Assembly: GCA_951406725.2 (NCBI GenBank)
Contig: OX597820.1
Span: forward strand, 127,844,001-127,908,000
Direction: 5' to 3'
Origin: Octopus vulgaris
Lineage: Eukaryota
DNA: 64,000 nucleotides
Shown: positions 26,969 through 59,198 of the stretch, piece by piece
Numbering within the stretch: position 1 is the stretch's first letter
How the letters are laid out: every line of letters starts with the position of its first letter
Notes under the pieces: model-generated
Databases searched by the model: none
What the model was told of the DNA's origin: nothing
What the model saw: only the letters and a program-made list of their open reading frames with translations
Position numbers and translations under genes: made by a program

Positions 26969-27435
26969 TATATATCAAATAAAATCAAAAGCAGAACACA
27001 AAGGATGTCGCGGTACATGTGTTTCAAGCTTTATAAACGACCTGTTCTTACATCAGTATATAATAGATATAAAAGATGGTTTAAAGCTCTCTTCAGCCGC
27101 ATGCATTGTTATTCCAAAGAGTTACATCACACTATAAAAAATATGAAAAGTACATGTAGTATTATCCATAATAGTAGGTATATTATATCTCCCTAAGAAA
27201 ATGTATTTGTAAAATTTCACAACCAAAAAGGCGTGTAGAGTATCATTGGATTTCGAAATGCACTTTTCATATTTTTCATAGCGTGATGTAACTCTTTGGA
27301 ATAACAATGCATGCGGCTGAAGAGAGCTTTAAACCATCTTTTATATCTATTATATACTGATGTAAGAACAGGTCGTTTATAAAGCTTGAAACACATGTAC
27401 CGCGACATCCTTTGTGTTCTGCTTTTGATTTTATT

Positions 27436-27444
<9 letters not shown>
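26969..27444. mobile_element. non-coding PLE-type foldback element, near-identical inverted arms of about 185 bp
   Basis: 26969-27155 versus 27258-27444; each arm contains a hammerhead. Confidence 0.85.
27313..27403 (+). ncRNA. type-I hammerhead ribozyme with intact core and long helix II (inverted copy at 27010-27100)
   Basis: gcgg-CTGAAGA-gagcttta...taaagctt-GAAA-cacatGTA-ccgc. Confidence 0.8.
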
Positions 27445-37581: not shown

Positions 37582-37637
<56 letters not shown>

Positions 37638-37855
37638 TATATATATACTTGCCCAAGATGCCACGCAGGGTATATATATATAAATATATATATATACATA
37701 TATATATACTTGCCCAAGATGCCACGCAGGGTATATATATATATATATATATAAATATATATATACATATATATATACTTGCCCAAGATGCCACGCAGGG
37801 TATATATATATATATATATATAAATGTATATATACATATATATATATACTTGCCC

Positions 37856-55629: not shown

Positions 55630-55990
55630 TCTTTTATCTTTTACATGTTTCAGTAATTAGGCTATGGCCATGCTGGTGCAACGCTTTGGAGAGGATTATT
55701 AGCCGAATGAATCGACCCCAGTACAGTTTTTAAAATAAATTTTTGATATTTATTCTATCGGAATGTCTTGCCAAACCGTTAAGCAACGAAAACGTAAACA
55801 CACCAACACCGGTTGTCAAGCGGTGGTGGGGAACAAACGCAGACACAAAGACACCCCCCCCACACAGTTTTCGTCTACCAAATCCATTCAGATATCTTAG
55901 TCGGCCAGAGGCTAGAGCAGGAGACATTTGCCCAAGGTCTCACACAGCGGGACTGAAACAGGAACCATGTGGTTCGGAAGCAGGCTTCTT
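55630..55990 (-). mobile_element. SINE family A interrupted in its tRNA head (continues at 57933-57968)
   Basis: ggttcggaagcaggcttctt at the break, then accactcaaccatgcctg after the insert. Confidence 0.9.
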
Positions 55991-57932
55991 TATTTCATAT
56001 AATTTGCCACAAGGGCATTACACAGATGGAAGCTTTGCGGGATGGACATGGACATTAATGGTATGAATGATGGTGATGCAAAAATTATGATGGTGGGAGA
56101 AGTCGAAAAGCGCCCGCCGACTATCGCTTCTCTAAAACAATGTTCTTTTTTCCTTTTTCCCCAAAAACACAATGAGGCAATAAACCTCTTACTTAAATAA
56201 CACAATGTTCAGAAAAACACACAAAAAGTCACATGTTTCACATTTTCTAGACTTGTTCAGGTTATCCGGCCGACCAGTATCCTTGCTTCATTGAAGCATG
56301 CACCCGGTTCCAGGCCGGACCACACAGGTATAAACTTATAGGAGTCCTCCGGGAAGGAATTCATGACTCTGCACAGATCACTATACCATAGGACCTCTGC
56401 AGCCACCTGCGAAGGTCACTCAGGATCCTCCGTGCAGGACAGAAGTCCCTCTCATCGGCCCCTCCTTTCCATTTTCTTTACTTCGTTTTCTATGGTTCCT
56501 CCTTTGTGGAAGAGGGCCACATATTCAACCTTCAGCGGCACACCCGCCGGAGGAGTATTGGGACACGCCCGCAGTGTGTCACAACCCGCCGGCGATGTCC
56601 CGTTTTTCTTCTTTCTTTTTTTCTTTTTCCCTTGGGCCGCGAGAGGGTGAGGTTCCTGTGACGCACGCAACAGGTCCTCCTTTTCTCCCGCAGCCCTTGG
56701 GTCCTCCGGTGGGCAACCATTGTTGCCCACCTTTCGTTTTAATTTTTTTGAGGATGTAGAAACCTCCTCATCATCCTCCTCCTTCTCTCCCTCCATTGAG
56801 GGAGCAGGGGGAGATTCCACTATTAACTGCTCCCGGATCCTATTTTGGTCCTTGGGGCAGTTTTTCTTAATGTGGCCAGTCTCCAGGCATAGGTGACAAT
56901 TGGGGGGGGGCGTTCCTCGACCATCACCGGATACCTAGACCCGGCCATCCTCAAAAAATCTGGAAAGACCAGACTTTTGGCTGATTGGGTCCATAGGGTC
57001 AAAACAGCTTTTGACCCCTCCCAATCAGCCGCAGGCAACACTTTCACATTAAGCAGCTTGGTACTGCTACCACCCAGAGCCCGGCGGATAGAGTCCTCTA
57101 TCCACTCGGGCTCAACTCCGGGTGGCAAACCGCAGATCCAAGCTCTCAATAATTTCTTTCCTCAGTAACTTGGAAGAAACATTATTTCCTCGCCCTCGAG
57201 GGGTTGACTTGCAAAATCGCAAGCTTCTTGGGGGGGGAGTCAAATAGCAACCAGACCGTTGCATACTTGACTCCCCGTGAAATAAATTTAATGGCTGGCA
57301 TGTAATCTGCGAGCTCATTCAAAATTGTGGCCCTCAGAAAGACGGTTATGGTGTCGAGCGACTTTGAATAAGTCCTCAACACCACCGTCTTCCTTTCGAG
57401 CTCTTTTAAACATTTTTTGGGAAGTGTCAAGTCCCACACAAGAAATTCCTTTGCCACTTCAACACAAATTTCAATTACAGTTCAAAATGTAAGAAAATAA
57501 AATAAGACACAAAAAAAGAAGAAGGAAATACACAACAGAAGGGAAGAAATAAAATAAAAATAACAGTTCAAAAAAGTTCTTTTTTTTTTAAATAAACGAA
57601 AGCTTTGAAGAAGAGAGTTCAAATCCAGGCAAAGGAATAAATTAATTTTCGCCCGAAAAGGTACTCCTGGCCCAATAATCCACAGGTAAAAAATAATTTC
57701 TCACAATTATGTGAGAAAACACATACGTCTCCACTGCAAGGCAGACAACAAGCTTCGAATCCGGTAAAGACTCCCTGCCTGTTCAAAAAAATAAAACCAA
57801 CAGGCAACAAATCCTACCGGACCCAAAAAGCAAAAAGTCTTACCTTACTGTAGAGCGTCTTTTAATTTTCGCCAGCTGCGAACCAGCGTGACGACTTCAA
57901 CGGCAGAGAGAAGAAAGACTAACGACCGGAAA
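55991..57932 (-). mobile_element. ORF1-only non-autonomous non-LTR element (L1/Tx1-like), 1942 bp, 16-bp TSD
   Basis: TSD cggaagca(g/a)gcttctt at 55975-55990 and 57933-57948; the 3' end runs into AATAAA; no RT or endonuclease motifs seen. Confidence 0.8.
56452..57457 (-). pseudogene. gag/ORF1-like protein (RRM-like region, CCHC zinc knuckle, low-complexity C-terminus), frameshifted
   Basis: WICGLPPGV and PDFLRMAGSRYPVMVEERPP; CHLCLETGHIKKNC (CX2CX4HX4C) at 56857-56898. Confidence 0.8.
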
Positions 57933-57983
57933 CGGAAGCAAGCTTCTTACCACTCAACCATGCCTGCACCTTTACATACATAA

Positions 57984-58971: not shown

Positions 58972-59180
58972 GAAGCGGTGGTGGGGAACAAACACAGACG
59001 CAAGGACCCCCCCCCCCCCACACACACACTCACAGAGTTTTCGTCTACCAAATCCATTCAGAAGTCTTGGTCGGCCAGAAGCTAGAGCAGGAGACATTTG
59101 CCCAAGGTCCCACGCAGCGGGACCGAACCAGGAACCATGTGGTTAGGAAGCAGGCTTCTTACCACTCAACCATGCCTGTA
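58972..59180 (-). mobile_element. SINE family A; local duplicate of 55817-55990 plus 57949-57990 lacking the insertion
   Basis: shares private variants (gctagagcaggagacatttg) and the flank cctttacatacataaatacac. Confidence 0.9.
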
Positions 59181-59198
59181 CCTTTACATACATAAATA

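Follow-up and report, generated by a model that had tools for sequence, protein, structure and literature searches.

A decayed ORF1-only retroelement in the tRNA-like head of an octopus SINE, and a likely helper LINE with the same target

The insert analyzed here lies on the minus strand of a 64,000-nucleotide stretch of Octopus vulgaris DNA, referred to as the window in the following. It is best read as a dead copy of a non-autonomous element that encodes ORF1 only, is specific for the head of a tRNA-like SINE, and likely depends for mobilisation in trans on the ORF2 protein of an L1/Tx1-type LINE with the same target. We assign this reading a probability of about 0.85, where mobilisation in trans and the specificity of the endonuclease are the parts that we infer.

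As stated in a preliminary description, the insert has 1,942 bp and splits a SINE just past its A box; its sequence places it at 57932-55991, flanked by two 16-mers (57948-57933 and 55990-55975) with a single base difference. These had been taken for a 16-bp target site duplication (TSD) with one mismatch, of which the two 16-mers stand, but they appear to be partly carried by the element, as judged from an empty paralog (see below). The long 5' leader measures 475 nt, and 5' ends vary from subfamily to subfamily. The single ORF is frameshifted as described, although it has two frameshifts, both in C runs (around 57230 and 56905), plus three in-frame TGA stops (57164, 56454, and 56418) and a GTG where the relatives start with ATG (Table 1). 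Since intact relatives run past the stop first taken as the end of the ORF, ORF1 read through its stops reaches 56257, leaving a 3' UTR of 266 nt and not the about 460 bp given earlier. The CX2CX4HX4C knuckle is present and is the sole Pfam match, a zf-CCHC hit of E=0.0038 and 17.7 bits, below the cut-off of 20.8. Three translated pieces had no match to a reverse transcriptase or endonuclease family in Pfam, in agreement with the initial failure to see such motifs. The AATAAA at the end of the insert is there but spans the junction, with the last two As derived from the target, and it is not followed by a poly(A) tail. The insert is a decayed, older copy on an older SINE type; it is 91-92% identical to its closest relatives and deviates from the majority of its cluster at 53 of 1,162 ORF1 bases. 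Contigs from four sequencing runs contained family-wide pieces only, none of them spanning the insert locus.

Table 1 Features of the insert, its host SINE and the empty paralog in the window.
Feature	Position	Strand	Basis or remark
Host SINE head, 5' part with A-box-like motif (57960-57950)	57949..57970	-	sequence
15-bp target, 5' copy	57934..57948	-	probably part target-derived, part borne by the element RNA
5' UTR, 475 nt	57458..57932	-	putative internal promoter
ORF1, decayed	56257..57457	-	2 frameshifts, 3 TGA stops, GTG start; intact relatives compared
CX2CX4HX4C zinc knuckle	56857..56898	-	sequence; Pfam
3' UTR, 266 nt	55991..56256	-	homologous among ORF1-only subfamilies
4-bp stem, 5-nt loop	56005..56017	-	common with the autonomous LINE; predicted ORF2p recognition signal
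AATAAA over the element/target junction	55989..55994	-	sequence
15-bp target, 3' copy	55976..55990	-	retains private allele of the host SINE copy
Remainder of host SINE, with B-box-like motif (55959-55949)	55640..55975	-	sequence; SINE alignment
Uninterrupted local SINE paralog	58973..59182	-	empty site at 59160-59146; pre-insertion allele

The target SINE, which we take to be the one known as the OK family, is present in high copy number and has a tRNA-like head with A and B boxes. When an intact SINE head was compared with 25 distinct genomic tRNAs (sampled from 30 loci of 34 matches) it aligned best to genes of the tRNA-Lys(TTT) type, with a z of about 5. The Rfam tRNA model did not match the SINE head, and the tRNA origin of the head therefore rests on this direct alignment. 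ARAGORN returned zero tRNAs within the 64-kb window, and the 15-bp target was absent from all 25 distinct tRNAs sampled across the genome. Insertion takes place at one base position of the tRNA-Lys-like SINE, between the two boxes. We counted 5,693 exact empty heads with one allele and 64,971 of the other type, and the younger SINE type accounts for 92% of exact heads. Separating the A box from the B box would presumably silence the SINE copy concerned, but suppression of the SINE through insertion is doubtful in view of about 1,400 exact junctions as compared with over 70,000 exact empty heads. Within the window the SINE remainder has matches at about ten further places, and a local duplication (59260-58973 and 58024-55800) comprises a (TG)n tract together with 210 bp from the 5' end of the SINE; the site is empty in one of the two copies.

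The ORF1-only elements constitute a multicopy family in the octopus genome, with a length of about 2 kb each. When the best 40 of 2,618 candidates from a DNA search for the family were scored, they were mostly matches of 1.6-2.0 kb at 78-92% identity. Out of 30 loci examined, 23 top copies could be aligned through the last base and all 23 then continued into the target, while the other seven were interrupted or 3'-truncated; past the SINE head the flanks of the top copies were unrelated. To keep the choice independent of the 3' end, a set was chosen by the ORF1 C-terminus alone (90 loci taken from the best 150 of 1,826 candidates scored, some also in the first set), reduced to 88 by removing two segmental duplicates. 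The terminal motif was kept in 72 of the 88, and directly after the intact 3' end 65 of these 72 had the target (with no more than 4 mismatches), a test passed by 0.16% of random window positions. In most of the seven 3' ends that failed, the target begins but is cut short after its first bases. A SINE body follows 52 of the 72 copies, and most of the others run into another element or a degraded SINE. Among exact terminal 20-mers genome-wide the exact target 6-mer came next in 155 of 190 and was missing in 35, the 20-mer across the 3' junction had 318 exact matches against 0 for the reversed control, and for the younger SINE type 1,080 exact junction 20-mers were counted (control 0). It is clear from these results that the flanks of other copies are non-random, and the landing-site specificity that had been suggested from one insertion is thereby borne out. 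The insertions are base-precise and in the same orientation as the SINE, and signs of independent retrotransposition are seen in 5' truncation, target duplication, and unrelated flanks.

Some of the first 30 junction matches carried ORF2 ends, and a search with an ORF2 piece gave 150 scored matches, many of them with open frames of 1,140-1,150 aa. One of these LINEs, L114, is intact over 5,455 bp and encodes an ORF1 of 467 aa and an ORF2 of 1,133 aa with Exo_endo_phos, RVT_1, and zf-RVT domains; most copies of this putative helper are 98-99.7% identical to it. The best PDB match of ORF2 is L1 ORF2p (E=8e-67, compared to 1e-20 for R2), so the sequence supports membership of the L1 group and sustains the L1-group part of the Tx1/L1-like affinity suggested at the outset. 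The 3' end of the helper lies at the same SINE base in 30 of 30 top loci, and in all 70 of the ends recovered among 80 full-length copies. By the criterion of PMC4494074, target preference requires that over 20% of flanks agree, and the octopus figures are 70/70 for the helper and 65/72 for the ORF1-only family.

An autonomous partner had been expected to share the 3' 150 bp of the insert. A partner LINE with the same target does exist, but about 40 nt are common, and the only DNA shared by helper and window insert is 33 of the 40 terminal nt. A short stem-loop is located in this end. We aligned 31 diverse termini, namely the 30 junction matches without a non-element and a near-duplicate, supplemented by three others, and found 91.9% of the cells of the 4-bp stem to be paired, with 13 double changes that fall at 2 of the 4 stem pairs only. 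None of 500 shuffles, a control that ignores relatedness, gave a pairing as high, and the value was above all slid controls. We therefore regard the approximately 40-nt 3' end with its stem-loop as a candidate recognition signal for the helper ORF2p, as predicted from the pairing pattern. More diverged ORF2 copies (50-85% at the amino acid level) also occur, and three older ORF2-bearing copies (L061, L062, and L070) end on the older SINE type. The window copy is of an older subfamily and occupies a SINE of the older type, so the helper of this particular copy was probably not the young LINE itself but a relative of greater age. One young LINE copy has an internal deletion and a short inversion in ORF1 (L109:4352-4492, oriented). 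One ORF1-only copy is followed in tandem by an old autonomous element whose 5' region contains a transposase-like fragment (L006 3' flank; L071:1-1300, minus strand), presumably of the hAT type judging from its motifs.

The empty paralog at 59182-58973 has the same upstream flank as the insert and agrees in its allele with the 3' target copy, while the 5' target copy has the family-wide base at the mismatch. Because the paralog equals the 3' copy at this position, the mismatched base of the 5' copy is most likely derived from the element, and the mismatch in the presumed TSD is probably not decay. Among 65 young LINEs with a SINE body next to them, positions 11-15 of the 3' copy are divergent in 19, and in these 19 the 5' copy is of the element type, a count that shows the existence of overwriting and not its frequency, as the 5' search pattern required an element-type ending. 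Hardly any variation is seen at target positions 1-10 across the 65. An extra T at the 5' junction was present in 10 of 15 insertions with a target mismatch and in 5 of 40 otherwise (P=2e-4). Private target variants occur on both sides of the truncated copies L167, L179, L189, and L199, and also of the full-length copy L162. Duplications at 5'-truncated copies range from 2 to about 16 bp; from the automated 5'-junction table only rows confirmed by eye were used. The 3' target copy might also be RNA-templated over its first ~10 nt, in line with three young copies that have variants there in the 5' copy only, but these three are compatible with mutation after insertion, and variants at positions 7-8 are shared in older truncated copies.

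A mechanism that could produce such junctions would begin with transcription starting inside the upstream target copy, at about position 8-9, and reading past the AATAAA that the target completes. The element's own ORF1p would package the element RNA in cis. ORF2p from the helper would then bind the 3' stem-loop, nick the bottom strand at the SINE site and reverse-transcribe the RNA (target-primed reverse transcription, TPRT), and a second nick would be made up to about 15 nt downstream. With 5'-truncated copies this should give true duplications of 2-16 bp, whereas the target-like leader of a full-length RNA could anneal and overwrite part of the 5' copy. The duplicated 15-mer would constitute a new site and allow stacking in tandem.

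Mixed tandem trains of LINE and ORF1-only elements are common, as expected if duplication of the target recreates the site for further insertion. In the longest train (L329-L330; G000 C1, about 223.69-223.71 Mb) 19.4 kb are placed in one SINE, made up of seven head-to-tail 2-kb ORF1-only units and one full LINE. The seven units are 98.7-99.9% identical, one of them with an intact ORF of 415 aa, and units related to the train are found at three other loci with 96-99% identity. Part of the growth of such arrays may be due to unequal crossing-over.

Alternatively, the elements could reach their target through tethering to those factors of RNA polymerase III that occupy the SINE promoter, the mode known from Dictyostelium TRE5/TRE3. 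The site is indeed located between the A-box-like and B-box-like motifs, the ORF1 of TRE5-A binds TFIIIB and needs box B (PMC5911963), and tethering would explain the conservation of ORF1. On the other hand, the octopus insertions are precise to the base, compared with windows of 14-110 bp given there for TREs (PMC5911963); stacking takes place at 15-mers within trains, kilobases from any B box; and target positions 1-10 are nearly invariant while positions 11-15 vary, as mentioned above. We therefore consider tethering unlikely.

Intact ORF1 relatives have 392-415 aa with two predicted RRM domains, a CCHC knuckle, a basic linker, and a family-specific C-terminal region. An AlphaFold2 model of the N-terminal 215 aa had a pLDDT of 80 (alignment of 23 sequences), and the top Foldseek matches of the model were all tandem-RRM proteins, with a low global TM of about 0.27. 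The layout of RRM plus CCHC knuckle, termed Type I ORF1p, is linked to Tx1 in the literature (PMC5203782), and helper and passenger ORF1s both show Type I features (zf-CCHC match; predicted tandem RRM). Pfam gave no Transposase_22 match in the ORF1s scanned, which sets them apart from the Type II ORF1p of mammalian HAL1; the intact ORF1 of L050 had no Pfam match, its knuckle being damaged. The only homolog in the protein database is an Octopus sinensis protein with 66% identity; O. sinensis LOC115225585, annotated as an uncharacterised gene, was placed inside the ORF1-only clade. ORF1s of the window type are 28% identical to that of the helper (E=5e-16), and their clade is far from all ORF2-linked ORF1s with 100/100 support (midpoint root).

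From 83 unique ORF1 copies three clusters of 37, 14, and 12 copies were used for quantification of selection. Between cluster majorities dN/dS was 0.27-0.32; for private mutations it was 0.68-0.86, also below 1, which makes the neutral baseline imperfect. According to these values, ORF1 has evolved under purifying selection among subfamilies that are separated by a dS of up to 0.35. All three clusters have a common 3' UTR directly after the ORF1 stop, so the loss of ORF2 predates their split.

The preliminary description had left open that most copies might carry ORF2 and this one be a one-off deletion. ORF2 was not found in the 1.5 kb downstream of window-type ORF1 at any of 90 loci (taken from the best 150 of 1,826 candidates), nor inside 30 further window-type elements, and the single ORF2 piece at L167 sits upstream of its 5' junction; the insert thus represents a family without ORF2. 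It could still be argued that the ORF1-only copies are repeated deletions of an unseen autonomous LINE with a window-type ORF1, in which the selection acted. Internally deleted copies of the autonomous family do occur (L062, L063, L064, and L081), and the genome searches scored the best candidates only. We find this explanation quite improbable, considering, apart from the 0/90 loci, that subfamilies separated by the dS above have one 3' UTR right after the ORF1 stop, that every ORF2-linked ORF1 seen belongs to the other clade, and that young ORF1-only units are 96-99.9% identical at separate loci. In a further young subfamily with ORF1 only, copies are 95-98% identical and their ORFs have 384-396 aa.

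It is very improbable that the copies stem from one old insertion amplified as a SINE-plus-insert composite or by segmental duplication, with the flank hitch-hiking. Segmental duplicates exist (L137/L138 and L151/L153), as does the local SINE duplication in the window, but 5'-truncated copies of 52 bp to 1.3 kb with their own junctions at the same site contradict amplification of a composite. In addition, the site is used by different families with and without ORF2, near-identical LINEs are found in different SINE alleles, the flanks are unrelated past the SINE head, and an empty paralog exists inside the window. A gag-only derivative of an LTR-type element, suggested by the gag-like CCHC knuckle, has a negligible probability, being contradicted by the homology to a non-LTR ORF1 (E=5e-16), by predicted tandem RRMs in place of a capsid, and by copies that are 5'-truncated with a fixed 3' end, with no terminal repeats apparent besides the target copy.

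A second ORF1-only lineage of 1.4-1.5 kb shares the target (L033, L041, the middle unit of L126, and L213) and has an ORF1 closer to the autonomous type than the window-type ORF1 is, suggesting that ORF1-only elements arose at least twice. A young subfamily (L294 and L298, 98% identical) combines a window-type ORF1 N-terminus with a different C-terminal part; ORF2 was not found within the part examined. Unrelated 5' UTRs recur between families (L016, L018, L022, L029, L049, and L329-L333), which by analogy suggests promoter swapping as in mammalian L1. Many of these 5' ends start with GCGCATGCG-like or TTCCGG motifs, which we take to resemble NRF1 and ETS sites.

Both kinds of element are known, target-specific Tx1 LINEs on one side and HAL1 on the other, and the SINE-targeting ORF1-only family of octopus is a new variant. 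The following comparisons refer to excerpts of the papers cited. The octopus elements share with target-specific Tx1 LINEs a fixed site in a dispersed repeat, a 15-16-bp duplication, tandem copies sandwiching the duplication, and non-autonomous passengers with a common target (PMC4494074). Tx1-clade targets comprise DNA transposons, LTR elements, snRNA and 5S genes, satellites, and microsatellites (PMC4494074): Xenopus Tx1 inserts into the piggyBac-type Tx1D (PMC4494074), and crocodilian Tx1-Mar, with SINEU passengers, into Mariner-N4_AMi (Kojima 2015, PMC4494074). In contrast to these named targets, the site in octopus lies in the Pol III promoter belonging to a tRNA-derived SINE, and the passenger is a protein-coding ORF1-only element where that of the Tx1-Mar system is an snRNA-headed SINE. 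Like HAL1, the octopus passengers are non-autonomous derivatives of the L1 group with ORF1p only, and have more than one origin (Kojima 2018, PMC5753468). They differ from HAL1 in an ORF1 of Type I (RRM plus CCHC) and not of the mammalian Transposase_22 type, in being sequence-specific without a poly(A) tail, and in a 3' stem-loop common with a helper whose ORF1 is as distant as stated above (28%).

Drosophila HeT-A is likewise Gag/ORF1-only, under purifying selection and targeted, and forms head-to-tail arrays with the RT-bearing partners TART/TAHRE (PMC5537684). HeT-A is added to chromosome ends with Gag-based targeting (PMC5537684), whereas the octopus elements use an internal site defined by DNA sequence, with duplication. 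As with R1/R2 in Drosophila rDNA, the first-strand junction is precise and the second-strand junction variable, and as in R1 arrays insertion occurs in tandem into the duplicated target (PMC2718515). The SIDEs of R2/R1 are also non-autonomous elements retaining the 3' end (PMC3414825), but R1/R2 belong to other clades, their target is rDNA, and SIDEs are non-coding. Promoters or surroundings of tRNA genes are targeted by Dada (PMC8869645) and the Dictyostelium TREs (PMC5911963) too; unlike the octopus elements, Dada belongs to the DNA transposons and occupies real tRNA genes (PMC8869645), and TREs insert beside and not inside tRNA genes, using Pol III factors (PMC5911963).

In the literature consulted, mostly titles and abstract openings, we found no description of a cephalopod LINE that targets a SINE, nor of a cephalopod Tx1 derivative with ORF1 only. 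An octopus repeat paper from 2026 lists 13 L1-Tx1 families and 421 young insertions averaging 5.4 kb (PMC13282606), and as this average is close to the helper length the helper LINE is probably catalogued there already. The word "target" is absent from its main text, supplements aside, and target and passengers seem undescribed in that main text (PMC13282606); the supplements may name these families.

The promoter of a tRNA-derived SINE thus joins the targets of sequence-specific L1/Tx1 LINEs, and ORF1-only elements can last outside mammals as a long-lived, selected, and target-specific lineage, which makes it testable why a non-autonomous LINE retains ORF1. Should mobilisation in trans hold, parasitism would here be stacked three deep, with the insert exploiting the LINE and the LINE the SINE. 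As hundreds of insertions share one site and differ in their alleles, they provide an unusually clean record of junction chemistry. The young LINE, being intact and having a short target, is a candidate for a site-specific integrase. The elements, and trains of up to 19 kb, deserve a place in repeat annotation, at least one relative being annotated as a host gene (LOC115225585). Older subfamilies reside on the rarer SINE allele and young ones on common alleles. As a tentative, rather unlikely extension, three tiers may co-evolve, with LINE and passengers tracking changes in the SINE head, the leader carrying the target allele, and the ORF1-only lineage being an active HeT-A-Gag-like partner that would compete for the helper ORF2p or help to target it. 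Plain chronology could also account for the apparent tracking, given that most of the exact heads are now of the younger SINE type.

Two element 3' ends stand inverted, about 20 bp apart, at G000 C1:111116893-111116966. Within the window, a 61-bp tandem array within TA repeats (37609-37838) holds a short SINE-like piece on the reverse strand, and long near-perfect inverted repeats are found at 11111-11334/12664-12887 (224 nt at 99%) and at 26969-27444 (187 nt at 98%), which are possibly the ends of DNA transposons or MITEs.
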